Virus record (IMG/VR): IMGVR_UViG_3300042453_004886
Coordinates: 32,001 to 96,000 of that record
Direction: 5' to 3' (one strand)
DNA: 64,000 nucleotides
Source: a virus
The translations under genes were made by a program, and so were the position numbers. Shown piece after piece: positions 9,763 to 64,000 of this stretch. Within the stretch, counting starts at the first letter, position 1. Every line of letters starts with the position of its first letter. The notes beneath the pieces were generated by a model. It saw only the letters and a list, made by a program, of their open reading frames with translations. It was not told the DNA's origin and did not search any database.

Positions 9763-10212
9763 CTAGTCTTTTGCTAAATTACTCTCAGGGTTAGTTACGT
9801 ATACACTCTCATCTTTTTTAATGATCTGTATACTTCTTGAGTTAGATCTAAAATCATTGTAGTTTACGTAGAGTATTTCCCATTTATCCATTTTAGAAAA
9901 ATAGCATATTTCTGGAAACATAGATCCAAATACGCCTGAGTGTAAATTAACTGTACAAAGCAGGATAAAGTCTTCGGTGTAGACTTTATAGCTTCCTAAA
10001 ATTCCAGGAAGCGTTACACCTCCGAGTAAGTCACCTGTTTCTACAAATATGCTTACATCGGGATGATTTATAACCTTCAAAGCAACATCAGGAGGAATAT
10101 CGTTTTGAACTTTTTCCAGACTTTCTACATCTGAAAAAAGCTGATTAACAGAATCCTTGTACTCATCGTTTACACTAAAACCAGGTTGATTGATAGACAT
10201 ATTACTTTCCAC
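9763..10212 (-). CDS. hypothetical protein
   Basis: 149 aa directly upstream of terL; no recognisable motif. Confidence 0.55.
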   Translation of the reverse strand: MESNMSINQPGFSVNDEYKDSVNQLFSDVESLEKVQNDIPPDVALKVINHPDVSIFVETGDLLGGVTLPGILGSYKVYTEDFILLCTVNLHSGVFGSMFPEICYFSKMDKWEILYVNYNDFRSNSRSIQIIKKDESVYVTNPESNLAKD

Positions 10213-13200
10213 TTCCTATTCTTTCCAGTACTCTTAACATTGTCCAGTAGTAATAACCCGGTAATTCAGATTCTAGTAGCTGAGTTTCATTACCAGTTTT
10301 ATCTACCCCAAATAGTCTTATTTCTCCTGTAGTAAGTCTTCTGCTAATAATCGTTTTATACTTCAAGTAAGGATCTGCTGGTACACCCTTTCCACCATTA
10401 AATATTTCATTAATTTCTCTTTGAGTGATTACTTGGTTTGAATTTGAACTGTTTACTTTTGCTTTTATTAAGCTTGATACACCTTCTCTAATATAGTTTA
10501 TATCTTGTAATTCTACAGGATTTATAGGTTTAATATTATTAGTGTTATTCGGTATTAAAACATCTGATCTAGGTATATCTGATAAATCAACACCAGCTAA
10601 ATTTAAGTTTACACTGCTAATAAAAATAATTGAGTTTATATCTATTCCATGAGAAACACACAAAGTACCTAGTATACTAAGTAAATTATTTATCTGTGTA
10701 TTACTTATACTTCTTGTATTGCTAGTATGGCTGTCGCACTCTAATCCTATAAATATAGAGTTTTCTCCTAAGTTGTCGATTCTGCTTCCGTCTTCAATAG
10801 TAATGTAAGCTTTTTTAGGATCTAAAGTACTTACAATTCCTTCAAGTTTAGTTAAAACATTTTCTACTCTTTGTTCTATAGTTCCATCTTTTCGTACAAC
10901 AAAATGGAGAGTTTCTTGTGTACTAGTCTGATCCATATCTTTATTAAATAATCTTATTATTATTCGGGTGGGCTTTAAATCCTGAGTTTTATTACCTGTA
11001 GTCTTAGGTGGAAATTTTATAACTTTAACAGGATTTATAGAAAATTTTATTATATTTTCCGAGTAATTGTATAAAATTTGAACAAGCTCTCCCGTTCTTG
11101 GATCAAATTCGTAAGAATTACCGGAACTTTCTACGTAGGTACCATTTGAACTTTTTGCTAAGCTTCTCATTTTTCTAGAGTTAAGGACTTCTTTTAAAAG
11201 CGCTCTTGCTCCGGCGGGAGTTAAATCTATTACTCCTGAACTTTCTCCAGGAATTGGGTTTCTTCTTATAAACACGCCCTGTATAGGGCTAAACGAAACT
11301 TGACTAATCTGGGTGGGAGTATGGGTACCCCCTTTAACTTTTCTTGATATACCTGTTTTTACAAGAATTAGATCTCTCCAATTACGCTCTAAGTAGTAAG
11401 CAAATCCTTCCCCACTATATTTATCTCCTTGGTAGTGATTTGCGATATTACTGTACTCATCTTTTGTAGCCTGTGGTAAATCTATAGGCCATGGTAACCC
11501 TGTTAGCTCTTGCAAATAATGAGCAAACTCGTGAGCCGTAACACTTAAATAGTCTACTCCCCCAATTAAACGATAATACTTTACGATACTATTATAAGAA
11601 ATTTTTATTATATTTCCGCTATCGTACACTCCTATTGCCCATGTAGTATATATTTCGTGGTCACCCGTGGTTCCTACAAGATCAGTAGAACTAACATTTA
11701 AACTTGTTGGAGCCTCTACCCCGAATACTTCAGCTAATCGAATAGCAAGTTCTTGTGAAGTTTTTGGCATAGGCCTTAACAGTGTAAAACTATTTGTAGC
11801 TGCATCAGTTAGTACGTCAACAGAATCTATACTTACAGAGTTTGCAGTACTTTCAGGGTTAAACTCAAGTTTTAGCGTATTTTCATTGAAACTGTGATCG
11901 GGTATAGGTTGGTTTGTAGCTGCATCCACTATTTCTAGTTTAAACTCTTTAAATTCTTTATTAAGGGGTTTACCTACATCATTTACTAAAACTTCGTTTG
12001 ATCTAGTATTTTCAAATTGATTTAATTCAAATGTTTTTTCTACTTCCCAACTCTGAGAAGAGTTTGTTCTTACGTATAAAGTTACTCTTACTCTACTTGG
12101 GTGATCAGGTATATTAACTGAGAACGAGCTAACTGGCTCAGCTTTATTAAACACTATTGTTACAGTAGTATTCGTATAGGAGTAGTGTCCTTGCTGAAGT
12201 AGTCTAATAGGGTTACTTGTAGTTACTTGCGTGCTTTTTACTGAAGAAGAAGACGCTAGATGATCTAAAGTTTCTACCATGCTTAAAAAGTAAAACTTAA
12301 GTGCTTCTTTTTGGTTCCAAGTTAGTTCTCTATCTTGACTATCGTTTACTACTAAAAACGGAGGGTCTAAATACGCTAGTCTACCGTATTTATTTAATCT
12401 AACTGCCTGTATAGGGGCTTTAAGATCAAGATTTATGTCTATACCAGATTGTTTTATTTCAAATAAGGTAAGAAGATAGTGTTGATTACTGCTGTACCTT
12501 GTGTGAGCATCCTCTTGTCTTAACATACCCTCGGAAGGACTGAAATATAAGGGTATGTCTTTATTTGTTTCTGAATCTTTAAAAGTTAAAGTTATTTTTG
12601 GTCTTAGTAATAGTCCAGAATTTTGTGTTGTTTGAACTATTTTTCTATATTTTGTACTAGAGCTGTTTTGTTTTTCAATCCAATCTATATGGTAATGTGT
12701 GTAATAAATATTCTTATGTCCTTTTACTGCATTACCAGAAGCATCTTGAAAAGTAGACTCAGTATTTGCAGATATTGGAAAGTATCCAATTTTTGGAACC
12801 AAGGAAAAAGTTACGTTAGTAAGTACTCTTTTAAAAGTTTTTGTTTTTTCATCATATTCAGCAATATAGGGAGTTCCATCTGTCTCAAATAATATAACGT
12901 AATTGTCTGTACCGTTCATAACAGCGGTACGACTAAGTTCGGGACTTATATATTTGTCTGAAAATATTACTATACCCCTATTACTTCTAGTTGTTTCGTT
13001 TTCTAGAGTAAGGTCAGAGTAAAGTCTAAAGTAATCCCCAATATTTGTTTTAAATCTGTAATCTAGGTAAACAGCATCTGTTGGTAATTGAATATATTTA
13101 GAGTTTGTAGATAAGATTTGCTTTAATAGTAGCTTTGCATTTTCTCTATCTATGTAAGCAACTTTTCCTGTTGTTATTACAAAAAATTGTCTAGTTATCG

Positions 13201-13549
13201 GATTAAACGACAATTCCTTGTAGGAGTAAGTAGGTAAAAATTGATCGTTTAATTCTTTTTGTTTAAAAAGCTTGGCTTTACTAGTCGGTAACTTGAGAGA
13301 CCTATCTCCACTAATTATTGAGGCTGCCTTTACTATTTTTGTAGACTTTATAGCATAAATTCCTTTTCTTGTTTTTTCTTCAACATCATCTACAATACTT
13401 GATACAAGCTCAGCATCTTCTTTTCCAACCTTTATTATTTCTCTAACTATGCTTTTTAGTACTCTTTGTAAAGTAGAGTAATGCCTTCTAAGAGCAGCTA
13501 TATCTAAATAAGATTTAGATATTTTATTAGACTTTTTTGGATCAGCCAT
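10202..13549 (-). CDS. 1115-aa virion-associated protein: jelly-roll-like domain, zincin metallopeptidase, degenerate amidase-like domain (paralog A)
   Basis: HEFAH near 11519-11533 followed by EGFAYY; LHFVVRKDGTIEQ...SIFIGLECD amidase-like core; full-length similarity to 13551..16916. Confidence 0.7.
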   Translation of the reverse strand: MADPKKSNKISKSYLDIAALRRHYSTLQRVLKSIVREIIKVGKEDAELVSSIVDDVEEKTRKGIYAIKSTKIVKAASIISGDRSLKLPTSKAKLFKQKELNDQFLPTYSYKELSFNPITRQFFVITTGKVAYIDRENAKLLLKQILSTNSKYIQLPTDAVYLDYRFKTNIGDYFRLYSDLTLENETTRSNRGIVIFSDKYISPELSRTAVMNGTDNYVILFETDGTPYIAEYDEKTKTFKRVLTNVTFSLVPKIGYFPISANTESTFQDASGNAVKGHKNIYYTHYHIDWIEKQNSSSTKYRKIVQTTQNSGLLLRPKITLTFKDSETNKDIPLYFSPSEGMLRQEDAHTRYSSNQHYLLTLFEIKQSGIDINLDLKAPIQAVRLNKYGRLAYLDPPFLVVNDSQDRELTWNQKEALKFYFLSMVETLDHLASSSSVKSTQVTTSNPIRLLQQGHYSYTNTTVTIVFNKAEPVSSFSVNIPDHPSRVRVTLYVRTNSSQSWEVEKTFELNQFENTRSNEVLVNDVGKPLNKEFKEFKLEIVDAATNQPIPDHSFNENTLKLEFNPESTANSVSIDSVDVLTDAATNSFTLLRPMPKTSQELAIRLAEVFGVEAPTSLNVSSTDLVGTTGDHEIYTTWAIGVYDSGNIIKISYNSIVKYYRLIGGVDYLSVTAHEFAHYLQELTGLPWPIDLPQATKDEYSNIANHYQGDKYSGEGFAYYLERNWRDLILVKTGISRKVKGGTHTPTQISQVSFSPIQGVFIRRNPIPGESSGVIDLTPAGARALLKEVLNSRKMRSLAKSSNGTYVESSGNSYEFDPRTGELVQILYNYSENIIKFSINPVKVIKFPPKTTGNKTQDLKPTRIIIRLFNKDMDQTSTQETLHFVVRKDGTIEQRVENVLTKLEGIVSTLDPKKAYITIEDGSRIDNLGENSIFIGLECDSHTSNTRSISNTQINNLLSILGTLCVSHGIDINSIIFISSVNLNLAGVDLSDIPRSDVLIPNNTNNIKPINPVELQDINYIREGVSSLIKAKVNSSNSNQVITQREINEIFNGGKGVPADPYLKYKTIISRRLTTGEIRLFGVDKTGNETQLLESELPGYYYWTMLRVLERIGSGK

Positions 13550-13550
13550 A

Positions 13551-16500
13551 CTATTTTCTTCCAGCTATTCTAAGCAAAGCTCTTACTGAGGAGTGATAGT
13601 AATAAGCTGGTAATTCAGATTCTAGTAGTTGAATTTCGTTACCAAGTTTATCTATTCCAAACAGCCGCATCTGTCCATTAGGGAGTCTTCTGCTAATAAT
13701 TGTTTTATACTTTAAATGGGGATCAGGTGGCACACCCCTACCGTTATTAAATAATTGGTTAATTTCTTTATAAGTAATAAGGTGATTTAAATTTATACTA
13801 TTTTTATTGGAACCCTTAGATTTTATTAGATTTTCAACAGCTTCTATTATGTAATTTATATCTTGTAAATCTCCAGGACTTACGTTTATACTCATTATTT
13901 CTTGTATAGAAAACGTCGAGCCTTTTACAACATTACTAAAGAAAATTGAATCTTTCTCTATTCTGTAAGATAACCTAATTACAGCTAGCAAGCTAAACAA
14001 AGATTCTATTTGTTTAGGGGTTATGTGAGAGTTATAAATGTCGGCTGGGTCACACTCTATACCTATAACCATAGAATCAGAGAACAAACTGTCAATTTTA
14101 AGATTACCTTGTTGAATGTAAGCACTATCTGAGCTAAAAGATGACAGACAAGTTAAAATATTATTTACTTTTTGTTCAATAGTCCCATCTTTTTTTACAA
14201 CAAAATGAAACGTTTCTTCAGTTTTAGTAGCATGCGTAGAACTTTGAAACATTTTCAATATAATTCTGTTTACAAAGACCATAAGTCCAGGACCCCTGTT
14301 GGGGTATTTTGGAGGCAGATCTACTTTTTCTACAGGCTTTACATTAAACTTTACTAAGTTTGCTGCGTAATTCGTTGAAATCTGACCAAACTCTCCTGTT
14401 CTTGGATCAAACCTGTAAACATTTGAAGATGCATCTATATACTGTATTTCTCCATTAATATTACTTACTGTTGGTAAGTTTCTTACTCCTTGATTATTGT
14501 GTATTTCTCTTAAAAGAAGCTGAGCAACCGCGGGAGTCAGGTCTAAAGAACCTTTATATTCTCCAGTTACAGGATCTCTTCTCATAAAAAGTCCTTGAAT
14601 GGGGCTAAAACTAACTTCCTCTAGTCTAGTTACCTGATAACTTCCTTCAGCTACTTCGGTTAGTACACCTGTTTTTACAATAATAAGGTCTTTCCAGTTC
14701 TCTTCTACGTAGTATGCAAATCCTTCTAATGACCTGTTTTCACCTTGTCTTGTATCAGCGTAGTTACTGTATTCGTCTTTTGTAGCTTGCGGTAAGTTAA
14801 CAGGCCAAGGTACTCCTGTTAAGTCTTGCAAGTAGTGAGCAAACTCGTGTGCAACAACGTTTAAAACGTCACCCTTATAAAACCTAACTGTATCTGCCAA
14901 TTTTATTCTTACTATGTTTCCACCGTCAGTGTATGTACCAATTGCGTCAGTACTGTGAATAACGTGATCACCACTGTTTCCGGAAAGTAAATCAACAATA
15001 TAACCTGATGGAGCTTCCACTCCAAACGATTCCGCTAATCTACTTAAAAGCTCTGCAATAGCACGATCAACATCAGATTTATCTTGAACATTAGATATTC
15101 TTGGAAGGGGTCTTAACAGCTTAAAACTATTAGTTGATGTATCTGTTAAAGCATCAACAGAGTTTATATCTACTAAAGGTACGTGTGACTCGTGTTTGTA
15201 CTCAAGTTTAAACGTATTCTGATTAAAGCCACTAGAAGATGGTAAACTATTTCCAAAAACATCAACTATACGTAATTTAAACTCTCTATATTCAACTGCA
15301 GTTGTACTATCTTTTTCTAATATTTCTATACCAGTCCTAGATGCTTCCGGGTAAATTCCTGCACTATCTGCAAACAGCGATATTTCATTTAGTTGAGTCC
15401 AGCTTTGACTTGAGTTTACTCTTCCAGATACAATCAATCGAATAACTTGAGGGTTGCTTGACGAGTAAGGGATTACAACAGAAAACCGATTTACTACTTG
15501 TGGTCTGCTAAATACAACAGTTATTTCACTATTTGTAAAAGAGTACTGTCCGTTTTGCATCACTTTAGGTGGAGAAATTTGAATATTTAGTCTGCTTTTT
15601 AATGATCTTTCAGAAGATAAATGATCTAGTGCTTTTACCATGCTTAAGAAATAAAATATTAAAGCTTCTCTTTGATTCCAACTAAGTTCTCTATCAGGAC
15701 TATCGTTTGTTATTAAGTATGGGAAATCTAAGTAAGCCAGCTTACCATATTTATTTGTTTTAACGACCTGTACAAAATTTTTCCAGTCAAACCCCATACC
15801 TGATTCTACTATTTCAAACAAGGTAAGAAGATAATGCTGATTGCTGCTGTATCTTGTGTGAGCATCATCTTGTCTTAACATACCCTCTGAAGCGCTAAAG
15901 TACAGGGGAATGTCTTTACCTGTCTCCGAGTCTTTAAATCTTAGAGTTATTTTTGGTCTAAGAGATCCCTTGTTTTCTTCTTGTTGAAATATTTTTCTGT
16001 ACTTAAGTGGTGAATTATTTTGTTTTTCTACTTCAACAATTTGATTGTCTTCCATGTAGTCTAAATCATAAAATGATTTTGCTCTATTGTTAGGATCTAG
16101 TACTGTGTGTTTAGTGTGTGAGCTTACAAGATAGTAACCAGTCTTGGGAATTAGTGAAAACTTTATATGACTAAGAACCTTTGTAAATGTCCTTGTTTTT
16201 TTATTATACTCCGCAATATAAGGTGTTCCATCTGCTTCAAACAGTATACCAAGTTGAAAGTCATTGCCTACAGGACCAAGTGCAATAAGCTCTCTTTTTA
16301 AATCTTTATCTGCAAATATAACTAAATCTACTCTTTGATTTGTTGTTTGCTCAAATTCTAGAGAATTATTAGAGTAAACTCTATAATAGTTATTTTCTGA
16401 TGTTCTAATTCTATACGCTAAGTACGGAGCTTCAACAGCTAGCTGTAGATATTGGGAGTTTGTAGATAAAATTTGCTCTAGTATAAGTGCTGCGTTTTCT

Positions 16501-16916
16501 CTGGTAATAAAAGCAACTCTACCTGTTGATATTACAAAAAACTGACCTGTCAGTGGATTAAATGAAAGTTCTTTGTAAGAGTAAATAATATTACCACTTT
16601 TATCAAGAGCAGTAGTAGAGCTATCTAAAAGATCTTGTTTTAAGTTATTAAGATCTTTTTGTGTAGGTAGTTTTTTAGGTTTTTTTGGAACAAGTCGTTT
16701 GTCTACTAAGTTTACTTTTGGTTTTTTAAGTCTTCTTATTCCCTTTGCTTTATACTCACCTGTTTTAGGGTCTCTTACCATATCTATATAGTCGTCAGAT
16801 CCTGTTGATAAAGACACTACTTCTTTAGCTTTTTGCTTTAACGCCATTAAAAGGGCACGCCAGTATACTCTAGCCGCTGGAGATGTTGCAATTTTTACTA
16901 AGCTCTCAACGCCCAT
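13551..16916 (-). CDS. 1121-aa paralog B with the same architecture
   Basis: HEFAH near 14835-14849, EGFAYY, FHFVVKKDGTIEQ...MVIGIECD; shares near-identical blocks with paralog A. Confidence 0.7.
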   Translation of the reverse strand: MGVESLVKIATSPAARVYWRALLMALKQKAKEVVSLSTGSDDYIDMVRDPKTGEYKAKGIRRLKKPKVNLVDKRLVPKKPKKLPTQKDLNNLKQDLLDSSTTALDKSGNIIYSYKELSFNPLTGQFFVISTGRVAFITRENAALILEQILSTNSQYLQLAVEAPYLAYRIRTSENNYYRVYSNNSLEFEQTTNQRVDLVIFADKDLKRELIALGPVGNDFQLGILFEADGTPYIAEYNKKTRTFTKVLSHIKFSLIPKTGYYLVSSHTKHTVLDPNNRAKSFYDLDYMEDNQIVEVEKQNNSPLKYRKIFQQEENKGSLRPKITLRFKDSETGKDIPLYFSASEGMLRQDDAHTRYSSNQHYLLTLFEIVESGMGFDWKNFVQVVKTNKYGKLAYLDFPYLITNDSPDRELSWNQREALIFYFLSMVKALDHLSSERSLKSRLNIQISPPKVMQNGQYSFTNSEITVVFSRPQVVNRFSVVIPYSSSNPQVIRLIVSGRVNSSQSWTQLNEISLFADSAGIYPEASRTGIEILEKDSTTAVEYREFKLRIVDVFGNSLPSSSGFNQNTFKLEYKHESHVPLVDINSVDALTDTSTNSFKLLRPLPRISNVQDKSDVDRAIAELLSRLAESFGVEAPSGYIVDLLSGNSGDHVIHSTDAIGTYTDGGNIVRIKLADTVRFYKGDVLNVVAHEFAHYLQDLTGVPWPVNLPQATKDEYSNYADTRQGENRSLEGFAYYVEENWKDLIIVKTGVLTEVAEGSYQVTRLEEVSFSPIQGLFMRRDPVTGEYKGSLDLTPAVAQLLLREIHNNQGVRNLPTVSNINGEIQYIDASSNVYRFDPRTGEFGQISTNYAANLVKFNVKPVEKVDLPPKYPNRGPGLMVFVNRIILKMFQSSTHATKTEETFHFVVKKDGTIEQKVNNILTCLSSFSSDSAYIQQGNLKIDSLFSDSMVIGIECDPADIYNSHITPKQIESLFSLLAVIRLSYRIEKDSIFFSNVVKGSTFSIQEIMSINVSPGDLQDINYIIEAVENLIKSKGSNKNSINLNHLITYKEINQLFNNGRGVPPDPHLKYKTIISRRLPNGQMRLFGIDKLGNEIQLLESELPAYYYHSSVRALLRIAGRK

Positions 16917-19900
16917 TTATTGTAACTCTTTTAATATGTTAGGTATATAGTTTATATTTTCGTTACCAGAGGTTGTACCTAACTGATTAACGGCTCTTTT
17001 ATCTGCTTCTACAGAAAATTGTCTATACTCTAGCTTAGTACCTTGAGATAATGCTGCTTCTAGAGCACCTGATATTTGAGAGTGATACCCTCTTACAGCA
17101 ATTAATCCAGCTTGTACTGGGTCTGCTTTCTTTTGATTAACAAGATCTATAAGTTTTAAATCAGAAGTAGAATAGTTATTTGTAATTATATTGTAAAGTA
17201 TTTTTGCACTAAGTATAGTATAGTATTTTACTGGTCTAGGTATTTTAGACGGTTTATTAGTTAATGGGTGATTTAGTAATTTGTAGTAGTTTGTGTAAGC
17301 TTCGTGATCAAGTTCATCAGCAACGGCAACACTTAAAGCCAACTGACTGTGCGTATTTAAAAGAACTTGGCTAATTCCAGATGCACCTGTATTAAAAGAG
17401 CTTGTTGAACTATTCCAAACAAGTTTTTGATCGTTTGTATAGCCTTGACCATCGTTTGCTAGTATGTACGGATTTAAACCAATACTTTCATGAGCTAACA
17501 TTGCAAGAAAAGTTTGAAGCGGAACCATAAGTCTAGCTGTTTCATTACTACCAAAAGCTTTATTGTAAGCATCAGCTATGTAGTAAGTTAGAGTTTTTGC
17601 ATCATCCATTGTGTACTTCATCTCTGTAAAACTACTTAAATAAGCATAAACCGCATCATCCATTGTTTCAGCAAACTCTACTGCAGTCTTAGCTGAATAT
17701 ATACCGGAGTAGGCTTTTTCTACAGCGGTGTATTCTGCTTTTGTTAATAATCTTTTATCATTACCTGCAAGATTACCCTTTTCGTCAAATCTAATTTCAT
17801 CTACTTTTCTTTGCTTTCTACTCGGGTTTTCTAATCTATCTTTTAAATACCTAGCATCTGCTTCAGTTAAAACTAATTGAAACCTACCTGTGATACCGTT
17901 ATAATAAAATTTATTTGATTCTACATCAAATTCAGCTGCATCGAGCATTTTTTTACGTGATTTAGATAATGGTGCAGCAGGCCTTACTTTTTCTGCGGGC
18001 TCTCTAAACTGAGGAAGTTCAAGGTCTATATCAGCAGGTAAAACAGTTTTGGACAGTTTATTTACAAAGTATTCCATGGATGCAATTAAAATTTTAATTT
18101 CGTCTATTATTGATATAGATTTGGTACCAACTGCAGGAACAGTCATGTTTCTTTCTGGAATAGTATACCTACTGTTAGCTTTAACTAGTTCAAATTTAGA
18201 TTTAGTGGTATGAGTTGAAGTAACTTTAGATAGATCTTTAACATCATCACGTGATGATCTATAAGGGCCGGGAGGAGTATTAAAATAAATAGCTTGATGT
18301 GCTTTACTAATCTCTAAAAATGCGGTTTCAAAGTACCTAATAGGTCTTTGAGCAAGCTGAAATAAACCATGTGGATACTCAGTAATACTTACAGCTCCAA
18401 AGAAAACTTTACCGGTGTTATTAAGATAGTTATCAGTAATAAACCTTGAATCTTGAATATTTGAATCTGGATTGTAGACGCTTAAAAGATAGTTAAGAAA
18501 CTCCTGTAAATTGTTTTCGCTAGGAATTACTTCATTCTCTAGTATTTCCTTTTCCCCTGTTTCTGAGTTAGTTTTGGTGTAGTAGTAAAATACAGGTGCT
18601 TTGAAATTGAAGTTATCTTTAACTTTATTGAAAGTTACAAGTAAATGCCAAGGCTTAAAATTAGGTATATCAGGAGCGAGTTTGATCTTTTTTACAAGCG
18701 CGTTTACATCTTTTTCTGAACCGTAAGATTTGGTAGCAAGCTGAACAGCCCAAGATTGAGAAGTTCTATAGTTTGTAGTAGGCCTAGATTTGCTTGAAGA
18801 AGAAGAACTGCCAGAACTTGCAGACGTAGCGCTACCACCACCTCCTGATTTTGGTGTAAATAAAGTATCTTTTGGTAGGTTGCCTGTGGTTGAACCAACT
18901 ACAAAGTCCCCATCTAGGACTTCTAGCATATACGTTACTGCATCTATTAAAAGTCCTACCTCTTCGTATAAAGACAGGTAGTTTTTAGTTTTTGGTGAGT
19001 TAAAATAGCTAAACTGCCAGTTGTTCTCTGTATGTTTTTCTTCATGCTTAATAGTTTTTATGTTTATTGTTCCCTTTAAATTTACTGTTGTGGTTCCGTA
19101 GTAGTTTTCTTGAGTACCTGATCTTTCCGAGGATACATACCTACTAGCCGATTTGTACAGGTAAAAAGCATTTGGCGTCTCCGGGGTTCCCCTAGCATAG
19201 CGCTCAAAAATAGTTCCTAAATATGGGCCTTCTTTAGCTGAAATCCTATCTGATTTCATTGTTAGTTTAGTGCTTGAACTACTTGGCCTACTTACATCAT
19301 ACCTGTCAGGAGAAAAATTAGATCTATCGGATAGATACGCGGTTAAAAACCATTCCAAATCTTTACGAGTCGGAACAACTTCTGTAAAGGTTAGATCATC
19401 CCGACGGTCGGAATCATTGTAAGATAAACTATAGTAAAATTTTCCGTATCTGAGGTCTATACTGCCGTCTTTATTAGTATGTGGTTTAAATATAATTTTT
19501 GGTAAATGCGGATACGATGTTTTATTGCTAGTGCTAACTAAGGTACTAAGACCAGGTATACCGGTTGAAGTTTTTAACATATTAATAAAAGCAGTTACAA
19601 CACGGTTATTTTCAGGAAAGTACTTTGGATCTCTTAGCTGCTCATATACCCCTGGATAACTTTTTGCAGAAGCTGTTCTACCTGCAGCTTGTGCTGCCTT
19701 TTCAACTTTACCCTGAGGATTACCGTTACTTGGAACAGCTCTTCCCGGCCTTCTTGCCGCAGGTCTTGCAGGAGCAGGTTTTTTTCTTTTCTTTGTTGTT
19801 GTGCCGGCTGCTTTTTTACCAGATTTTTCTTTTTTGGATTCCCCAGAACCTGCAGCACCAGAACCAGATTTACCTTTTGAAGCTTGCGCGACTTTAGTCG

Positions 19901-52135: not shown

Positions 52136-52182
52136 TCACAACTTTCAGTAAACAAGACCTTTAACTTTGAACACTTAATATA

Positions 52183-52211: not shown

Positions 52212-52280
52212 AATAATAAAATAAAAAACTTTAATTACAGCTACTAAAATTTTATGCTGTAAGTAGAAACCTTGCAAGCT

Positions 52281-52844: not shown

Positions 52845-52853
52845 TTCATTCCT

Positions 52854-53846: not shown

Positions 53847-53848
53847 GC

Positions 53849-53980
53849 CTAGTCACCCTCATATATAAATTCTACTGTAACTTCAAAAGTTTCCTGTTGA
53901 ACGGCTACTTCAAGAGGGGCAAGAATTTCCACGCCGTGGATTCTTTTATTGAACCATTTGCCTCGAGTAAACAAGGCCAT
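53849..53980 (-). CDS. 43-aa protein absent from the track
   Basis: MALFTRGKWFNKRIHGVEILAPLEVAVQQETFEVTVEFIYEGD fills the gap between 53985 and 53846 with 4-nt and 2-nt spacers. Confidence 0.6.
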   Translation of the reverse strand: MALFTRGKWFNKRIHGVEILAPLEVAVQQETFEVTVEFIYEGD

Positions 53981-53984
53981 CAAA

Positions 53985-54464: not shown

Positions 54465-54514
54465 TCATTTCTTCTCCTGATGAAACTTTTTTTATCATAT
54501 AATAAATTTCTAAA

Positions 54515-55045
54515 TTAATAAATGTTTTTTACAAAATCAGATTTACGAAAATCGTGTGGCATCATCTGATAATTCTTAATTTCGGGAAGAAGGACAACAC
54601 CTGCTTCTCTGAAAACCAAATTAATCAAATGACTGAATATCATCTTATTATCAAATTCTAACCCATGTCTGGGAATTTTGTTATTGAATTTTATAAGTGC
54701 AGCTACAGATTCAAAATAATTGTAACCAAGGTCGATATATATTCTTAGTAAGTCAAGCGCTTCTAACTTGACATCAAAGTGATCTACTTCAACTCTCCAG
54801 ACTTGATAAACGTCCGGATTAAACATTTCTCCGGGTGCTAGAAATAAAACTTCTTTTATAGACTCTAACTGTACTTCATAAGTAAAAATACAACCATCTG
54901 CTCTGACACGTGAAACTATTTTGATATCTGGTAAGCTGTGTCCTGTTAAAAAATTAAAAATCTTTTCTCTGTAGTTATGCTTTACTTTTATAAGAATATC
55001 ACCAGGTTCGAACCCATATTTATTTGTAACTGGTTTCAATCCCAT
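54515..55045 (-). CDS. permuted papain-like (YaeF/YiiX, C92-like) fold, catalytic residues apparently lost
   Basis: PGDILI, VWRV, LGYNY, FSHLI..FREAGV and MPHDF match the family pattern; expected His and Cys read as Asp and Phe. Confidence 0.6.
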   Translation of the reverse strand: MGLKPVTNKYGFEPGDILIKVKHNYREKIFNFLTGHSLPDIKIVSRVRADGCIFTYEVQLESIKEVLFLAPGEMFNPDVYQVWRVEVDHFDVKLEALDLLRIYIDLGYNYFESVAALIKFNNKIPRHGLEFDNKMIFSHLINLVFREAGVVLLPEIKNYQMMPHDFRKSDFVKNIY

Positions 55046-55060
55046 GACTTCATCCTACAT

Positions 55061-55092
55061 AAGAAAGGGTGGGCAGGTTGCCCTGCCCACCC
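55061..55092 (-). terminator. intrinsic terminator after the 535-aa fibre gene
   Basis: Minus strand GGGTGGGCAGG-GCAA-CCTGCCCACCC-TTTCTT. Confidence 0.9.
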
Positions 55093-55113
55093 CGGTTACG
55101 ACCTAGCTAGAGC

Positions 55114-56721: not shown

Positions 56722-56758
56722 GAGGTTTAACCTCCCTCATATAGAACGTTACTAAACT

Positions 56759-56779
56759 GAGCATTCACCGTGAATGCTC
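56759..56779. promoter_or_regulatory. 21-bp palindrome in the leader of the 535-aa gene
   Basis: GAGCATTCAC-c-GTGAATGCTC, between the putative promoter and the RBS. Confidence 0.55.
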
Positions 56780-56803
56780 TCCTATGGATTTTAGCTGGAA
56801 GTA

Positions 56804-56831
56804 ATTCTATTATGAGGCAAATTTTGGTCTA
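56804..56831 (-). promoter_or_regulatory. putative promoter
   Basis: TAGACC-16 nt-TAGAAT, nearly the same boxes as 61763..61791. Confidence 0.45.
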
Positions 56832-56866
56832 GGTTTTGACAAAAAAATAACACAAGGAACATTATA

Positions 56867-57277
56867 CTATGGAATCAAAGTGTAGTTTGCGGGAAAAGGT
56901 ATGACATAAATTTCGAAAGTTTCTTCACCCTCTGTGGGATCCGTTAATCTTATCGTTGTAGAGTCAATTTCAAGATAAGCTTCCCCTGGAACTTGCTTTA
57001 CTGTATTTGCGTAAAAAACAATACTGTTTGTTCCTGGAGCGTAAGATACACCTTGAGCTGACAGATCAATATCTACCACACCAGCAGGCATACTCTCAAC
57101 GTAAAACCTCTGGGTTTGAACATTTCTCGTCTGCTGAAGTTGATCTTCAAGCGTCACAACACGAGCAGTTAGAGCATTGATAACTTGCTCTAACTGCTCG
57201 TGTGAAAGCTGTCCTACGCCGCCCAGTTGGCTATGGTGATCGGGAATCCAGGGGAAGTTTTGAATCTTTGGCGACAT
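56867..57277 (-). CDS. virion structural protein sharing a C-terminal module with 55114..56721
   Basis: HHSQLGGVGQLSHEQL motif; SYAPGTNSIVFY...YLEIDSTTIRL. Confidence 0.6.
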   Translation of the reverse strand: MSPKIQNFPWIPDHHSQLGGVGQLSHEQLEQVINALTARVVTLEDQLQQTRNVQTQRFYVESMPAGVVDIDLSAQGVSYAPGTNSIVFYANTVKQVPGEAYLEIDSTTIRLTDPTEGEETFEIYVIPFPANYTLIP

Positions 57278-57307
57278 TCAGCTTCTCCAGTGAAACAGGT
57301 ACGGTGG

Positions 57308-57571
57308 TTAGTCTGGCTCAGCCTGAGCCTTCTTTTCCAGGTGCTCTTCAATAATAGCACTTCTTTGCTTCAGAGCTTCCTCAAACGCGGGGTGAAGATC
57401 GATACCAATTTTACTGGATATCTGCTCAACCTGAAGCATCAAAGCTTTAAGTTGTTCATTTTGAAGCTCATCAAATTTTGATACAGTTTCTTTTTTTACT
57501 TCTGATATAAGTTTTTTAGATATAAACTTTAAAACACCTGATTTTGTTTTTTCAAAATACTCTTTAGGCAT
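57308..57571 (-). CDS. hypothetical coiled-coil protein
   Basis: 87 aa, overlaps the upstream stop region. Confidence 0.55.
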   Translation of the reverse strand: MPKEYFEKTKSGVLKFISKKLISEVKKETVSKFDELQNEQLKALMLQVEQISSKIGIDLHPAFEEALKQRSAIIEEHLEKKAQAEPD

Positions 57572-57992
57572 CTTTAACCTCTATAGTAAACTCTTCCATG
57601 TATATTTTTGCGTTTTCATGCGTAGAAGCTAAAAATACGTTATACCTTCCAGGAATTGAAAAACTAAGCTTTAGCTCTTTAGACAGCTCTACACTCTGCT
57701 TGTTTATGTTTATATTTACAGGCTTTACTTTGCTGTTATTCTTAATTGTAATAACCTCATCAATTTTTGCTGTAAGCTTATCTGGTTTTATGTCTAGAAC
57801 TTCTTTTTCAAGTAAAATTACTTCGTCATTTTCATTCTTTGCAAGATAGAATTTATAGTAGTTGTAAGTGTTTATAACTTTAGACCCTTCATCCAGGTAT
57901 AGATAATTTCCTGAGCGAAAGTTATCATCTGATCGATCTTCAACCTGTGTAATATATCCAGATTCCAAATCACCAAACACTACTGAAATCAT
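57564..57992 (-). CDS. hypothetical beta-rich protein
   Basis: AGGAG RBS; 142 aa; AT-rich. Confidence 0.55.
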   Translation of the reverse strand: MISVVFGDLESGYITQVEDRSDDNFRSGNYLYLDEGSKVINTYNYYKFYLAKNENDEVILLEKEVLDIKPDKLTAKIDEVITIKNNSKVKPVNININKQSVELSKELKLSFSIPGRYNVFLASTHENAKIYMEEFTIEVKDA

Positions 57993-58005
57993 AAATACTC
58001 CTAAT

Positions 58006-59130
58006 TTATGCCGGTATAAAAGTGTAAAGGTATGAAATTCTTAAGTTCATAGGAACATATGAAGCGCCTGATCCAGAGCTTTGTCCTATAGTAGCACTTT
58101 CAAAAGTTAGTGTAGTTTCACTGCTTGAAGCTAAAACTGCGTACCCGTCACTTTCGTTTCTCTCGGGGGTCCAGTATTGACCAGCTAGCTCCGCTTTTCC
58201 GCCAATAAACAATAAAGAAAGAATAACAAGCTTTTTTCCGCCAGGTGCCGCAGGAAAACTATACGTGTAGTCTGTATCAGTAGTAGGTGTAGCTACCACT
58301 ACACTAGCCCAGTATAAATTATCAAGTCTATCGTAATGATTTTTTAGATTTTGTTCTAGCTTACTATAATCTACAGCGCCGTCTAGAATATTAGTCGCAC
58401 TTATTGTTAGATTATCTAGGTAACCTAATAGTTTACTTGTAGGAATAGATCCATCTCTAATAATGCTACCTTCAATAGTTCCGTCTGGATTAATTAATCT
58501 GCCTACATAACCGTTTGTATTAGATGAGGTCCATATACCAATTCCACCTGCTTGAACTGCTCCTACATAAATAGCTCCACGTTGACTATGATTATTCGTG
58601 TGTGCATTATCTGCGCCCCATCCTCTAATTCCAAGAGCGCTTCCATAAAAAATAGCTTGGTTATCCGGATGTGAAGGCTCAATTTTTACAGTGCCTGAAT
58701 TCGAATTAGCTTCGCTAGCGGTGCCGGGCTGAGTGCCGTCTTTTAGAGGAATAGGCGTAAATGGCTCATAATGGGCAATGTTCCAAACTAGCTCATCGTC
58801 TTTAATTCTTGAAATAGATCCTTTTGTGGTTGTATCTAACTTCAACCAGTGATTTTCACTACTGACTACCTTAAAAAGAGCTTCTGCATTTAAATTTGGA
58901 TTTGGTTCATTTCCGTTTGCTACTGGAATGTACGCACTATTAAGATTTACACCCTCGCCTCGGGCGTGAAGACCGTCAACCATATCTGCATTGAAATAGC
59001 CAAGAGGAGCTGTTCCATTCGCATCCGGACCGTTATTTAATGAGGAGTTGTGTCCCTGGCCGATACCGTGGACTCGGTTTTTACCTGTAATTTTCTTCTG
59101 GATGTGGTTAATAAACTGCAGAAAGTCCAC
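58006..59130 (-). CDS. fibre-like virion protein
   Basis: GTG start with AAGGAG; FNADMVDGLHA and DGSIPTSKL/DGAVDYSKL fibre motifs. Confidence 0.6.
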   Translation of the reverse strand: MDFLQFINHIQKKITGKNRVHGIGQGHNSSLNNGPDANGTAPLGYFNADMVDGLHARGEGVNLNSAYIPVANGNEPNPNLNAEALFKVVSSENHWLKLDTTTKGSISRIKDDELVWNIAHYEPFTPIPLKDGTQPGTASEANSNSGTVKIEPSHPDNQAIFYGSALGIRGWGADNAHTNNHSQRGAIYVGAVQAGGIGIWTSSNTNGYVGRLINPDGTIEGSIIRDGSIPTSKLLGYLDNLTISATNILDGAVDYSKLEQNLKNHYDRLDNLYWASVVVATPTTDTDYTYSFPAAPGGKKLVILSLLFIGGKAELAGQYWTPERNESDGYAVLASSSETTLTFESATIGQSSGSGASYVPMNLRISYLYTFIPA

Positions 59131-59133
59131 GGT

Positions 59134-60840
59134 TTACTCCTTTACTGGCGGCTTAGGCGTAGCCTGATTTTGCTGAGGACCCGGCGCAGGGTTTGCAGCA
59201 CCCGGCTGAATGCCCTTGGCAATAGAAGCCATGTTTTCCCGATGACGATAGCGAGCTTCTGAGTTTTTCATATTAAAATCCTGGGAAGCTTTTTCACTAT
59301 CCATTTTTTGCTTATCTTTGAGCATCTTTGCTTTGGTAGCCAAATCTTGTTTCTTGACTTCCAGATCACGATCTTTTTGACTGACAGACTCTACGCTAGC
59401 TTTTGCTCTGACCATGGCAGCGTCTGCCTTGATCTTGTCGTTATCAACCTTCTTGACAGGAGCCATAAGGATCTTCTTTTGGTCTTCCTGACTGAGGATG
59501 GGCTTGAGCGTCTTGGAGGGCAAGCCAAACATCTCTCGAACTTCGTTGAGATCCTGCTCGTCTGCAGGGTTGAGGTAACCATTTTTGACCAGCTTATCAA
59601 ACACACTTGCCAGAACCGTACTGGTGGCTGGGTCAAAGGGCTCAATGATAAACTCGCCGGGATCTGTATTGTCAAAGTTCAAGCGAATCATCTGACCGAT
59701 GACCTGTTCACAGAACGGCTCCACGATTTCTTTTGCAAGTGCTTGAATCATGAGCTTGAAAACATTCCAGTGAGTCTGACCAGGATTGCTTAGTCCAGCT
59801 GAGCCTTCTTCTAGTAGAAGCTGCGGAATAAGTAATCCCCTGAATATTGCTCTGTTGTAATAATTAATTGCATCCAAGAATACTGTACCAAAATTGTTTC
59901 CAGTTGTCAGAGTATCAATCTTGATATCGTCTTGCATCGAAGGACGCTGGAAAACAAGAGCAGTTCCTCGATGCATCTCTGCCAGAGCTGCTTCAGCGGC
60001 CTCTCTGATGGTCATATTGCGTAGTTTTCCAGTTGTATGGTCATGGACACTATCTGGAGTTACACCGGCTGGAACGACCGCGTAGGTGATTGGAGTGCCG
60101 TACCTGTCGAGAGCAACGTTATACATCTCAAGAACGATATCCTTGAGGGTCCAGTTCTTGTAGATCTTCTGAATAGCAGAGGTGCCCGTGTACATGCCTG
60201 AACGCTTGTTATGTACGGTCAAACAAAGCTTGGACTTGGGCAGATGGTTGTAAGTAGCTCCATCTACCCCAATCTGCCAGATACCGCAGTGGGTGATTCC
60301 AGCAGGAGGCGTGTAATAAGGATTATCCAGAGGAGCTTTGTCAATCAATCTTCCGTGAACATTGGGGACAATCAAAATAGACGCAGGGTGGTAGTTAATG
60401 ATTTCATCAATTTGAATCTTGCCTTCTACAAGCTTCCAGAGAACCTCTGAAACGCTGTAACCAAAGATGAGGCTGGATTCCGTGAGTTCACCAATGGCGT
60501 ACTCAACAGTCCCTTCCATTTCATCAATGGCTTTTCTGACAAAAGTTTGAATCTGAGCATCGGGGTGCCGGTATTCCCTGACGGAGGCGATCAGGGAGAG
60601 TTTCATGAACTCGATACCGGCACCCACGGTCTCATCTGTCTTGGCTGCCCGCTCATACTCAATCAGACGACTGAAGTTGGCGGGAGCCATGTACTGAGTA
60701 AGCATTCCCGGGCCACGAGAAAGCGTACTCCCTATCTGGCGTGCGCTGCCGCGAGGAAGGCGATCACGCTCTAATTCAGCACTGGCTGTTTCAGCTGCAG
60801 CTTGTACTGGATTTGCAGTTTCTCGCCTTCTTCTGGCCAT
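59134..60840 (-). CDS. portal protein (DUF935/Mu gp29-like)
   Basis: FGYSVSEVLW, WTLKDIVLEMYNVALDRYGTPI, AINYYNRAIFRGLL and LNF...PGEF pattern. Confidence 0.88.
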   Translation of the reverse strand: MARRRRETANPVQAAAETASAELERDRLPRGSARQIGSTLSRGPGMLTQYMAPANFSRLIEYERAAKTDETVGAGIEFMKLSLIASVREYRHPDAQIQTFVRKAIDEMEGTVEYAIGELTESSLIFGYSVSEVLWKLVEGKIQIDEIINYHPASILIVPNVHGRLIDKAPLDNPYYTPPAGITHCGIWQIGVDGATYNHLPKSKLCLTVHNKRSGMYTGTSAIQKIYKNWTLKDIVLEMYNVALDRYGTPITYAVVPAGVTPDSVHDHTTGKLRNMTIREAAEAALAEMHRGTALVFQRPSMQDDIKIDTLTTGNNFGTVFLDAINYYNRAIFRGLLIPQLLLEEGSAGLSNPGQTHWNVFKLMIQALAKEIVEPFCEQVIGQMIRLNFDNTDPGEFIIEPFDPATSTVLASVFDKLVKNGYLNPADEQDLNEVREMFGLPSKTLKPILSQEDQKKILMAPVKKVDNDKIKADAAMVRAKASVESVSQKDRDLEVKKQDLATKAKMLKDKQKMDSEKASQDFNMKNSEARYRHRENMASIAKGIQPGAANPAPGPQQNQATPKPPVKE

Positions 60841-60866: not shown

Positions 60867-61711
60867 CTATCTATTAAATCTACCATCAAAGTCGCCACGC
60901 ATGAATGCTAAAGACTCTGCTGCTTTTTGTTCTCTTTCTGACAGAGCAGAGAGGGACTCTGCCCAGGCTTCTGCTTCTGTATCTGACATGGCGTAGAACT
61001 CTGATGGCTGAATGTTTCCATACCTGGCTAGCTGAGCGCCAATGTCTAGGTTCAGGAAACGGCGATACTGCTGCCGAACAGCTTTTTTGAGAGCTGCTGG
61101 ACCTGCTGCATCTCAGGCTTACCAAGGAAGAACATCTCAAGGAATAGTGCTTGATAAAACTGACCATCCTTGAGGGTAAGCATGTCTGACCGCTTGCTCC
61201 AAGAGAAGTTTGAAAGATCCTGCTTGTCAACCTTTTCAAGGCACTGGTAAGCAAGAGCTTCTTCAAGCTTACCGCGCTTTGATAGCTCTTCGCCGTCAAA
61301 GCCTTCAAGAAGCGCACGACGATCCGAGTTACGGGGCTCGCGGAAAATAACCTTACGCCCACTGAGAAGCTCTACAGGCTTGATGCCGGACTCAAGAAGA
61401 GTCTTTGCAAGCTTCTCTGCCTGAGCGTACTCATCCTTGTTGATAGTGTTGGCTTGAATGAAAAGTTGCTCATAGAACTGACCATCCTTGTAGCTCAGGA
61501 GATCAGCCTTCTTCTGCCAAGTAAGCTGGGCAAGATCAGATTCGCCATCTTTTACCAAGCAGGTGTAAGCAAGTGCTTCTTCCATGCGGCCTGGCTTGCT
61601 CAGCTCTTCACCGCCAAAACCTTCCTGAAGAAGGCGACGGTCTGAGTTTCCTGCTTCTCTAAAAACAATCATCCTACCGCTAGGTAGTTCTACTGGAGCG
61701 CTGAGATTCAT
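60867..61711 (-). CDS. gpGT-like frameshift fusion, 281 aa (-1 shift at codons 209-210)
   Basis: The -1 frame runs 71 codons from the slippery site to TAG at 60867-60869 and encodes ...LARYGNIQPSEFYAMSDTEAEAWAESLSALSEREQK.... Confidence 0.8.
61052..61711 (-). CDS. tail assembly chaperone (gpG-like) made of two tandem ~105-aa repeats
   Basis: VELPSGRMIVFRE..NSDRR and VELLSGRKVIFRE..NSDRR; both repeats contain LAY.CL and KDGQFY; AGGAGGA RBS. Confidence 0.8.
   Translation of the reverse strand: MNLSAPVELPSGRMIVFREAGNSDRRLLQEGFGGEELSKPGRMEEALAYTCLVKDGESDLAQLTWQKKADLLSYKDGQFYEQLFIQANTINKDEYAQAEKLAKTLLESGIKPVELLSGRKVIFREPRNSDRRALLEGFDGEELSKRGKLEEALAYQCLEKVDKQDLSNFSWSKRSDMLTLKDGQFYQALFLEMFFLGKPEMQQVQQLSKKLFGSSIAVS
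61082..61088 (-). other. -1 ribosomal frameshift heptamer A AAA AAG
   Basis: TCA AAA AAG is in the X XXY YYZ phase, nine codons before the zero-frame stop. Confidence 0.85.
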
Positions 61712-61865: not shown

Positions 61866-64000
61866 ATGGATCGGTTTTCAAATCCAAGAGACTTTAGATA
61901 TAAAGAAGAAATAGAAACAACTTTAGTAAATCTTTTTAATGCTGTCCTTGATGAATACGCTGAGGCAGATGTCTTCTCTGAGGATACGGCTGAAGCTGTA
62001 GACTCGTCTACAAAATTAAAATTAGAAGCTATCCAAGTTATAAAAGACTTTCTCCAGGACAAATATACTGGAAACATCTTTAATGATGTCATGACCCTTA
62101 CTCAAGAGGGTAACTTAAAATTTATTGCAGAAGAACTTATAAATCTGTATGGGGATCCTCAAAACCTCAGCGTACTTTTAGATGATTTTTCTAAAGATGG
62201 TATAAAAGGCACTCACGCTGGCGTAATCAAACATTTATCAAAGTTTTCGCAAGATTTCGTAAAAGCCAGCTTTTTTAGCAGATTCAACGATCAGCAGGAC
62301 TTAAAAGATGACGGCACGTTTGACTACAGGCTTGGTAGGTCTTTTTTAACAAGCAAATACTCAAAACTGAGCCGGGTAAACAGATTAGGAGCACCAGAGC
62401 TCGGGCTAGATGCCAGAGGCATGGTGGACTTTTACAGAAACCTTGTAAAAGACTCTTACAGCCCAGGGCTTGTTTCAGGTTACAACATTGGTCGAGCAAT
62501 GCTTGGATCTATTGTTGGAGCCAAAGAATCCGTACAAATCGGTATGTTCCAGATGGAACACGGGATTCTTCTTGACGCTTTGAGACTTCAACAAGAGCTC
62601 GGTACAAAAGTTAATCTCATGCTCAGCCCACCTCAAAAAAGAGATGGGGCACCCCAAGAAGTCGGATTCTTCAACGTCATTGCCCGAAACTTACTGGGTG
62701 GAACTTCTGTAGAATTTGACAAACAAGTTATGGAGGGCGTAGCAAAAGCCGGTTACGCACACTACAAATTCTTAGGCGTAGACCTTGAGTCCTCCTTGGA
62801 AAACAGAAAAGTCATGATTGGTTCATTCAACATGACCCGAGGCGCTCTGGGCCAGATCATTGACCAGTCTAGAAATTTAGTCAGTAAACACCCGCACAAC
62901 TTTGAGCTTGGGTTCTTGATTGACTACGGGTTGGTTAAAAACCACGGACTTAGAAAGTCTGCATTTGAACGTATAACCAAAGAAGCAAAAGATTACGCTG
63001 GTTGGTTGTTTAATAGAGGAAATGACAGACTAAAACCACTTGGTTACAATCCAGAGCATATTCTATCCGGTCCTCAAACTTATGAAAAAATAAGGCAGGC
63101 GCTAGGATTTGGAGATGGGGTAAACCCTGAAAACTTGACTAAAAAAGTCAATGCTTTCTTTGCTCTGAACGTTATTACAGACCGAGGAATGGGCGTTGAT
63201 AGCGAGGGAAGACCTACAGGTAGATCTATATCTGGAAATAATCCACAGGAAGGTTTTTACCACACACTAGAGCAAAAACTAAGAGCTAGCACAGAATCTA
63301 AAATTACAATCCTTATATCTAGCAACTTTAAAGGAATAAGAAATCAAAACATTGGTGGAAGTCAAGACGCCTTCGAGTCTGGTGCATTTAAAGCACTACA
63401 AGATTTGAAAAGACAGTATCAAGACAGACTAGAAATAATTGAAACTCACGAACACATCCACGCTAAGACAGCTTTGATCTACGGAGAAAGCGGTGAGCTA
63501 GACATTATCAGCGGAAGCGCAAACGTGTCTGGACAAGGTTTTGGTGGTGAATCACAAGACGTAGGCCTATACTTGTCTTCAAAACATTTTGTAAAAGCTT
63601 CCAAGTATTTAGAAAAGCAAGCAGAAAACGTACTTGGTTACTTACAGACCTTGGCCGTAAGACCTGTACTCAGAAAATCACTGGTAAGAGAAAGCAACGC
63701 AATATCAGAAACACTGATGCGTGAGCTCAAGCTTCGTCTGAGCCCAGAACTGATGAAACGAGTTACTTTTACAGCAATTCAGCACATGGGTAGTGATGGA
63801 GAAATTTACCAAAAAGGTACACGAGTAAGTATATCTTTAAACATCAAGGGAGTCAGGGGTAAAGGAAGGTTTTACGTTGCAAACGCTCTCTCATTTGACG
63901 TATTTGAATACCTTGGAGAGCCAACAAGACTGTATATTCCGCAGCTGTACAAGATCATAGACCCAGTTCTGGGTATGCACCCAGAACAGCGCGTGAATAT
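61866..64000 (+). CDS. phospholipase D superfamily protein with two HxK motifs, 3'-truncated (at least 711 aa)
   Basis: GAGG before ATG 61866; no stop to the window end; HYKFLGVD...GSFNMT...NFELG (His codon 62760) and HAKTALIY...GSANVS (His codon 63459). Confidence 0.85.
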   Translation, partial: MDRFSNPRDFRYKEEIETTLVNLFNAVLDEYAEADVFSEDTAEAVDSSTKLKLEAIQVIKDFLQDKYTGNIFNDVMTLTQEGNLKFIAEELINLYGDPQNLSVLLDDFSKDGIKGTHAGVIKHLSKFSQDFVKASFFSRFNDQQDLKDDGTFDYRLGRSFLTSKYSKLSRVNRLGAPELGLDARGMVDFYRNLVKDSYSPGLVSGYNIGRAMLGSIVGAKESVQIGMFQMEHGILLDALRLQQELGTKVNLMLSPPQKRDGAPQEVGFFNVIARNLLGGTSVEFDKQVMEGVAKAGYAHYKFLGVDLESSLENRKVMIGSFNMTRGALGQIIDQSRNLVSKHPHNFELGFLIDYGLVKNHGLRKSAFERITKEAKDYAGWLFNRGNDRLKPLGYNPEHILSGPQTYEKIRQALGFGDGVNPENLTKKVNAFFALNVITDRGMGVDSEGRPTGRSISGNNPQEGFYHTLEQKLRASTESKITILISSNFKGIRNQNIGGSQDAFESGAFKALQDLKRQYQDRLEIIETHEHIHAKTALIYGESGELDIISGSANVSGQGFGGESQDVGLYLSSKHFVKASKYLEKQAENVLGYLQTLAVRPVLRKSLVRESNAISETLMRELKLRLSPELMKRVTFTAIQHMGSDGEIYQKGTRVSISLNIKGVRGKGRFYVANALSFDVFEYLGEPTRLYIPQLYKIIDPVLGMHPEQRVN

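Follow-up and report, generated by a model that had tools for sequence, protein, structure and literature searches.

Lytic-transglycosylase-type domains and two orphan proteins with a probable gluzincin motif in the tail module of an uncultured 195-kb myovirus

The hydrolase-type domains described here are encoded in a window of 64,000 nucleotides, positions 32001–96000 of the 194,626-bp IMG/VR virus record IMGVR_UViG_3300042453_004886, which CheckV rates as complete. An uncultured myovirus of ~195 kb, with a head and a contractile tail, has its late structural operon here. We read these domains as ordinary virion-associated lysins accompanied by accessory late proteins, that is, as entry equipment of known kinds, and give this reading a probability of roughly 0.6. 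It centers on a baseplate hub with an embedded domain of the lytic-transglycosylase fold (SLT family), a giant distal tail protein that ends in a second SLT-family domain, and two tandem paralogs, A and B, in which a probable gluzincin motif precedes an Amidase_2-like segment. A sequence-only reading had proposed that the same block encodes a multi-enzyme tail in which live and dead hydrolases together breach a complex envelope layer by layer. The open reading frames (ORFs) and motifs on which it was built were located as described, and the block is a virion module with portal, protease, capsid, sheath, gp25-like, and gp6-like profiles. A mix of intact-looking and degenerate domains is also present, with intact motifs in the giant SLT domain versus an altered hub insert and zinc-less amidase segments. 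About five of the nine domain calls hold. Between 61711 and ~4891 the minus strand encodes nearly every gene, and the features below are on this strand unless the plus strand is named.

The baseplate hub protein (1343 amino acids (aa), 37961–41992) is encoded 92 nt after the tube gene and is followed by the spike-like, gp25-like, and gp6-like genes. Ten homologs of 1208–1379 aa were found, and residues 1–1200 were modelled with AlphaFold2 (AF2) from an 11-sequence alignment, giving a mean predicted local distance difference test (pLDDT) value of 50, with values of 70–86 over residues 23–245, 365–430, 500–590, and 1040–1160. Residues 21–219 of the model align with the MuSo2 43-kDa tail protein (Z 8.6), the pyocin R2 hub (7.5), Mu gp44 (6.9), and VgrG (6.6), and the weaker matches returned by Foldseek are every one a baseplate or tail-tip complex. 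A divergent insert at residues 355–617 (40142–40930) adopts an SLT/lysozyme fold in the model, as indicated by structure alignment with MltF (Z 10.5, root mean square deviation 3.5 Å over 166 aligned residues) and with the other lytic transglycosylases MltC (Z 8.4), MltE (7.8), MltD (7.1), and Slt70 (6.5). Within the insert pLDDT is 70–86 over residues 365–430 and 500–590 and low between them. Comparison of the insert with the giant-type SLT profile by hhalign resulted in a probability of 97.4% (E 1.3e-11), and in the equivalent insert of two relatives the Pfam SLT family scores above its cut-off (P0156, residues 409–523; P0161, residues 412–477). Because of these fold matches and the Pfam SLT matches in the relatives, the hub family is assigned, on the modelled structure, to the gp27 / P2 gpD / Mu gp44 class with an embedded SLT domain. 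Sequence searches with the hub found nothing, either in the PDB with the hub profile or by tblastn against 50,697 phage records.

The catalytic motifs of the hub insert are degenerate in this phage. Glu-421 is kept in QEISDNF with Ile in place of the usual Ser, the Gln of the second motif is Glu (GESGFTE), and the Asn of the third is Lys (KAYKDA). With EI/GFTE/YK in place of ES/GxxQ/YN, lytic activity of the insert is therefore doubtful. A second SLT motif had been proposed at the hub C terminus (SIGLMQ, residues 1166–1171); it is conserved in none of the 10 homologs and is best read as chance.

The giant distal tail protein (3208 aa, 16917–26543) carries the intact counterpart. Its C-terminal domain, residues 2950–3208 (16920–17696), contains Glu-3019 and Ser-3020 in HES, GASGISQ at 3053–3059, and RGYHSQ at 3151–3156, in the order of SLT enzymes. 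When the last 1200 residues were searched with HMMER against 1.8e9 representative proteins, two kinds of match were obtained, a domain of ~190 aa discussed below and the protein P0011, which matches the last 250 residues of the giant with E 1.2e-17 (phmmer). P0011 is a homolog of the hub, and the part of it that matches the giant is its SLT insert, as is also the case for P0154 and P0155. By blastp the giant C terminus matches the hub inserts of P0154 and P0011 with E values of 1.6e-27 and 8e-26, respectively. A profile of the giant C terminus and related inserts aligned by hhalign with a profile of inserts including the Pfam-SLT members at 97.5% (E 7.7e-12), with HES/YES, GASGISQ/GATGLGQ, and YH/YN in register. 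In the ESM Atlas the segment lies nearest an SLT cluster (0.95; 12 of 30 hits). On these alignments and the conserved residues, we assign the C terminus of the giant to the SLT family, with the Glu-3019–Ser-3020 pair intact. The Pfam SLT family did not match it at E≤1 when the domain was searched alone or at E≤10 genome-wide, and tblastn of the giant C terminus against the 50,697 phage records found nothing. The one intact SLT domain of the sequence-only reading is thus supported in the giant. Of the two further lysozyme-like domains that it proposed, only a hub domain stands, as the insert described above; the hub SIGLMQ motif does not, nor does the end of a 711-aa tail protein, which reached 0.1% by hhalign against SLT profiles built from the hub inserts and the giant C terminus.

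The rest of the giant is shared in part with the relatives of the phage. The N-terminal ~1200 aa and a ~190-aa domain of unknown fold at residues 2001–2215 (19899–20543; detected by phmmer and matching phrog_37225, function unknown) are common to 1982-aa homologs, whereas residues ~2216–3208 are an extension specific to this lineage (tblastn against L006–L008). In the relatives the ~190-aa domain stands at the C terminus of the giant homologs, and it has ~160 relatives at E<1e-3 among the 1.8e9 representatives, many of them in proteins of 250–900 aa. It matched no Pfam family and no PDB sequence, and hhalign showed no relation to tube, hub, wedge, or spike. For the whole giant no Pfam match was obtained, 500-aa pieces included, nor any PDB sequence match, internal repeat, or paralog in the genome. 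The presence of a degenerate SLT domain in the hub and an intact copy in the giant suggests that the domain was duplicated or transferred and that the original then decayed; a relocation of the active copy to the giant protein is probable.

Between the giant and terminase genes lie the tandem paralogs A (1115 aa, 10202–13549) and B (1121 aa, 13551–16916), which are 47% identical over their whole length. A search of 5.8e9 proteins with A returned B as the only homolog, and no other homolog of the pair was found in phage records (tblastn of A against the 50,697 records), IMG/VR, or a metagenome collection; PDB sequence searches with A and with an A/B profile also gave nothing. Both proteins contain the motif HEFAH (residues 673–677 in A and 690–694 in B) followed by EGFAYY (714–719 and 731–736), within a putative gluzincin active-site block at residues 660–730 of A (11360–11572; equivalent to 14676–14888 in B). 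The Glu of EGFAYY, a putative third ligand, lies 37 residues past the second His in both paralogs, a spacing of X36. The block is 72% identical between A and B and is among the best conserved stretches of the pair, and an HExxH motif is expected by chance only ~0.19 times in the whole block of 18.7 thousand aa. MA-clan gluzincins combine HExxH with a downstream Glu, as in the M1/M9-type HExxH...EGxAxY arrangement. HEFAHYLQ and the EGFAYY found 36 residues on in A and B resemble this pattern, but the best zincin profiles are weak and cover the motif span only (Peptidase_M90, E 0.04; SprT-like, E 0.11), and the motif sits inside an orphan of ~1100 aa. The ESM Atlas gave only unnamed small viral clusters, at ≤0.90. 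An AF2 model of A from a two-row alignment has a pLDDT of 32, too low for use, and shows, at low confidence, four strands, the HExxH helix, and two further helices.

A pattern scan found HEFAHYLQ also in small phage HExxH proteins, and in the IMG/VR proteins that carry it the likeness to A and B ends at the motif. The full HEFAH-X36-EGFA pattern with the same spacing occurs in metagenomic ORFs, with seven hits compared with ~0.5 expected by a rough estimate, and these fall into about three unrelated groups; a hydrophobic strand precedes HExxH in them. They resemble MA-type peptidases, which fits a gluzincin site in A and B and does not imply homology. The HExxH-X36-E motif of A and B is, on sequence grounds, a probable gluzincin site. 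Of the two intact zincin sites of the sequence-only reading, the motifs are thus real and conserved, while no profile matched below E 0.04. Among the ORFs found by the motif scan is a family of 727–996 aa (L016, L017, L018, and L020) with the pattern HEFAH.AHL...(36 residues)...EGFAT..EGR, which looks like an uncharacterised family of MA-type peptidases.

Behind the putative peptidase site, residues 873–973 of A (10631–10933) and 900–991 of B (13944–14219) form a degenerate segment like Amidase_2 and peptidoglycan recognition proteins (PGRPs). It matches the core of the Amidase_2 profile only, positions 31–115, with 24.2 bits in A and 24.1 bits in B (E ~5e-5) against a Pfam cut-off of 26. The His/His/Cys zinc sites are unoccupied, with Arg/Lys, Leu/Met, and Ile/Ser in their place (RIIIRLF / RIILKMF, IIFISSV), and no His or Cys is present at the C-terminal zinc site. 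The two amidase calls without ligands made here therefore hold as Amidase_2-like segments, with scores below the cut-off. Non-amidase PGRPs bind peptidoglycan without a His/His/Cys zinc site. The A/B core (HFVV.KDGTIEQ, IG.ECD) is like these in lacking the zinc site and differs in matching below the Pfam cut-off and in its context, a late protein of a phage in which a putative peptidase precedes it. Nowhere are A and B less conserved than in this segment. The Amidase_2-like endolysin of the phage itself (3810–4415) was considered as its kin, and no sequence relation was found.

Between the protease and DUF4815 genes the same gene order is found in four IMG/VR fragments, and in three relatives among them (G001, G003, and G004) the DNA downstream was compared. 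In G001 (L002/L006, IMGVR_UViG_3300042554_002954) the head genes are 95–99% identical and the terminase segment 94–97% identical, whereas the tail genes from sheath to giant show 30–60% protein identity and are mostly undetectable at the DNA level. This mosaicism spans ~9800–46500 of the window, and the near-identical heads with 30–60% identical tails make G001 a clean case of whole tail-module exchange. The giant homolog is shorter in the relatives, with 1982 aa in G003 and G004, and is read as three ORFs in G001. It ends just past the ~190-aa domain and is followed by a gene of 149 aa, 45% identical between this phage and G001, and then by the large terminase gene, with no A or B. From this order A, B, and the last ~1000 residues of the giant, the SLT domain included, are lineage-specific. 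They look like additions at the tail/terminase junction and not like parts of a conserved system, being absent from relatives with heads 95–99% identical. The terminase gene is uninterrupted here; in G003 and G004 (L008:7877–11221, minus strand) it is an ORF of 1115 aa with an intein after residue ~115, supported by LAGLIDADG_3 (79.8 bits) and Intein_splicing (40.5 bits), both above cut-off, and the terminase of G001 shows the same ~1.45-kb gap.

Several observations weigh against our reading. When all ORFs and 131–508-aa pieces of the large proteins were scanned with Pfam and PHROG (E≤1), no match to SLT, lysozyme, peptidase, or papain families was obtained, and Amidase_2, below cut-off, and PLDc_2 were the only hydrolase-type matches. 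Pfam SLT accordingly matches neither SLT domain of this phage, and the SLT fold of the giant C terminus is assigned through the homologous hub insert. The hub model is confident in parts only, with the mean pLDDT of 50 and parts of the insert at 70–86. No profile or fold backs a zincin in A and B, where the model of A has the pLDDT of 32, and the Amidase_2 match falls 2 bits under the cut-off. The giant, A, and B are putative virion components, so placed by gene position, and module junctions such as the site of A and B often hold accessory, non-structural genes.

The proposal that coordinated enzymes would strip a protein layer (the zincins), peptidoglycan (the SLT and lysozyme-like domains), and a membrane (a phospholipase D (PLD)-type domain) to suit a host whose envelope is complex draws on the presence of several hydrolase-type domains in or beside one virion block, and a thick wall, S-layer, or sheath in the host would agree with the distant kinship of the capsid with those of cyanophages. 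The evidence for such a sequence of steps is confined to the peptidoglycan enzymes. The protein-layer step comes down to an HExxH motif, and the putative zincin adjoins a fold of the peptidoglycan-recognition type, not an S-layer binder; the membrane step would depend on a PLD domain in another protein on the other strand. Three of the parts are absent from relatives with near-identical heads, and the lysozyme-like end of the 711-aa protein, the GLMQ motif of the hub as an SLT motif, and the papain fold were not found. The peptidoglycan part of the proposal is therefore retained and the layer-by-layer scheme as a whole is very unlikely. A and B might also not be entry enzymes at all, being tail fibres or receptor-binding paralogs, or late non-virion accessories such as lysis helpers or anti-host effectors. 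They are orphans at the tail/terminase junction that the relatives lack, in a region of low GC (0.31–0.35), their N-terminal halves are the most conserved (up to 82%) and the C-terminal region variable, as in fibre paralogs, and fibre genes with a Peptidase_S74 chaperone lie further downstream. The HExxH...EGFAYY block, however, ranks among the most strongly conserved parts of the pair, which points to selection for the site itself, and no fibre-type repeats or profiles appeared in the Pfam/PHROG scans, which leaves this alternative unlikely though worth keeping in mind.

The giant could instead be a tape measure, or a tape-measure-like protein at the center of the tail, and carry a lytic domain at its C terminus. 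There is no tape-measure gene between tube and hub (41993–42084), the size of the giant would suit a long tail, the homolog in the relatives having 1982 aa, and it is common for tape-measure proteins to have an SLT or M23 domain at their end (review PMC6116005). Its gene, however, follows the wedge genes and does not precede the hub gene, and the domain at residues 2001–2215 recurs in ~160 proteins, many of 250–900 aa, unlike segments of tape-measure proteins. We regard a tape-measure role as distinctly unlikely, and the giant is kept as one tape-measure candidate together with a helical protein of 441 aa (34006–35331) that has a hydrophobic segment near its C terminus.

Under the favored explanation, ordinary lysins with accessory late proteins, the hub would be of the gp27/gpD type with a lytic-transglycosylase-fold domain in an insert common to the relatives, in which this phage has kept the Glu and lost the other motifs. 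The giant would have gained an extension of ~1000 aa in this lineage, ending in an SLT domain that looks canonical and shares its ancestry with the hub inserts of the relatives, and A and B would join a probable gluzincin motif to an Amidase_2/PGRP-like segment without zinc ligands. Contraction of the sheath would bring hub and spike to the cell wall, where local cleavage of glycan strands may be carried out by one or both SLT domains. For A and B, should they be part of the virion, the most plausible role would be that of peptidases directed at peptidoglycan, and their dead amidase fold may serve as a muropeptide-binding module. A more specific version, in which A and B are virion zinc peptidases steered by the dead PGRP-type domain and were gained with the extra SLT domain as a wall-breaching upgrade while the hub SLT decayed, is tentative and rather improbable. 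If true, lytic function would be seen here in the course of a shift from hub to distal giant tail proteins, and virion-associated lysins would include a new class of peptidase.

The general idea is not novel, as phage virions are familiar carriers of lysins, and the textbook examples have their lytic domain in a hub or spike (T4 gp5), in a giant tail protein, or in a tape measure (PMC5380687; PMC6116005). What is added here is a family of hubs with an SLT domain, with about ten uncultured relatives, and two orphan proteins of ~1100 aa with a probable metallopeptidase site and a dead amidase fold. If A and B act on the cell wall, they would add a type of peptidase to phage entry and be a possible source of wall-targeting domains. 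The hub resembles T4 gp27-gp5 and the SPO1/Twort-like Tal hubs in placing a peptidoglycan-cleaving domain of the lysozyme fold in the central hub or spike of a contractile tail. Its N-domain matches the fold of phi812, Mu gp44, pyocin, and VgrG-type hubs, and SPO1 gp12.1 and a "putative tail lysin" are among the BFVD matches. In T4, by contrast, the T4-lysozyme domain is in the spike, whereas here an SLT-type insert with degenerate motifs is in the gp27/gpD-like hub itself. For the giant, a close parallel in architecture is phiKZ gp181, a 246-kDa virion protein with a C-terminal glycosidase domain (PMC5380687): both are giant tail-associated proteins of >2000 aa ending in a domain of the lysozyme/lytic-transglycosylase type. 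The two differ in that tblastn against the phage records gave no sequence similarity and the SLT domain of the giant is lineage-specific and related to hub inserts. The tape measures of T5 (pb2), TM4, and phiIPLA35 carry lytic domains (PMC6116005) and are likewise long tail proteins with a muralytic domain near one end; the giant gene differs in its position after the wedge genes.

The remaining proteins of the block include a spike-like protein of 302 aa (33108–34016) with beta-helix repeats and a weak match to DUF2345, the VgrG C-terminal family (E 6e-4), which is kept in the relatives at 37–49% identity. A split spike had been proposed. Because of the hub fold match and the weak VgrG-type match of the 302-aa protein, an ordinary pair of gp27/gpD-like hub and separate beta-helix spike, with three conserved genes between them, fits better than a split T4 gp5. 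The 711-aa tail protein (35826–37961) is conserved, with homologs in L002 and L003 at 25–35% identity; it matched no Pfam or PHROG family and, despite these relatives, no sequence among the 5.8e9 proteins. On the plus strand, a protein that runs off the window (61866–64000) has a PLD-type domain in its N-terminal 711 aa. PLDc_2 matches two stretches of it with E 8.5e-14 and 52 bits against a cut-off of 27, and half-sites are recognizable at residue 299 (HYKFLGVD) and residue 532 (HAKTALIY, with Tyr replacing Asp). The PLD call, judged by profile and motifs, is sound, and both half-sites of the two-motif domain described earlier are present, but in a separate protein on the opposite strand. The dead papain-like fold was not recovered: no papain-like, NlpC/P60, or CHAP match appeared in any ORF at E≤0.01 or in residues 1–215 of the PLD protein at E≤1. 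No profile matched the ORF at 61052–61711, which had been taken for a relocated chaperone.

Profile searches place the head and proximal tail genes together at 42085–60840, with a Mu-type portal (59134–60840; Portal_Mu, 2.4e-38), a head protease/scaffold protein (50498–52135; phrog_976), the major capsid protein (49302–50468; Phage_cap_E, 6.4e-18), the tail sheath (42669–45287; phrog_30392, 1.7e-43), and a probable tube (42085–42642). The baseplate wedge genes form a second block at 26543–33115, in an order kept in the relatives, with a gp25-like protein (32630–33115), a gp6/J-like protein (31370–32620), proteins of 381 and 188 aa, and a DUF4815 protein of 1027 aa (26543–29626). From the DUF4815 gene through A the intergenic gaps are −11 to +1 nt, so late co-expression of these genes is likely from their layout. 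The large terminase (624 aa, 7879–9753; phrog_17415, E 3.5e-13) marks the end of the tail block. The capsid protein matches only Microcystis LMM01-type phages and one Microcoleus phage, at 26–31% identity, and the host markers NblA and psbA were looked for in the genome and neither was found. A cyanobacterial host is thus only a weak inference.

Beyond the terminase lie genes of the fibre type, a 304-aa protein with a Peptidase_S74 intramolecular chaperone (4891–5805) and, within 4891–7240, a 468-aa protein that matches head-decoration and fibre PHROGs. Structural genes are therefore present on both sides of the terminase. The endolysin (201 aa; phrog_5867, E 9.6e-9; Pfam, 18.6 bits) is a probable lysis gene, as is an ORF of 146 aa (4385–4825) that overlaps it. 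A PhoH-like ATPase is encoded on the plus strand (3025–3759, 215 bits), and genes of this kind are frequent in marine and freshwater phages.

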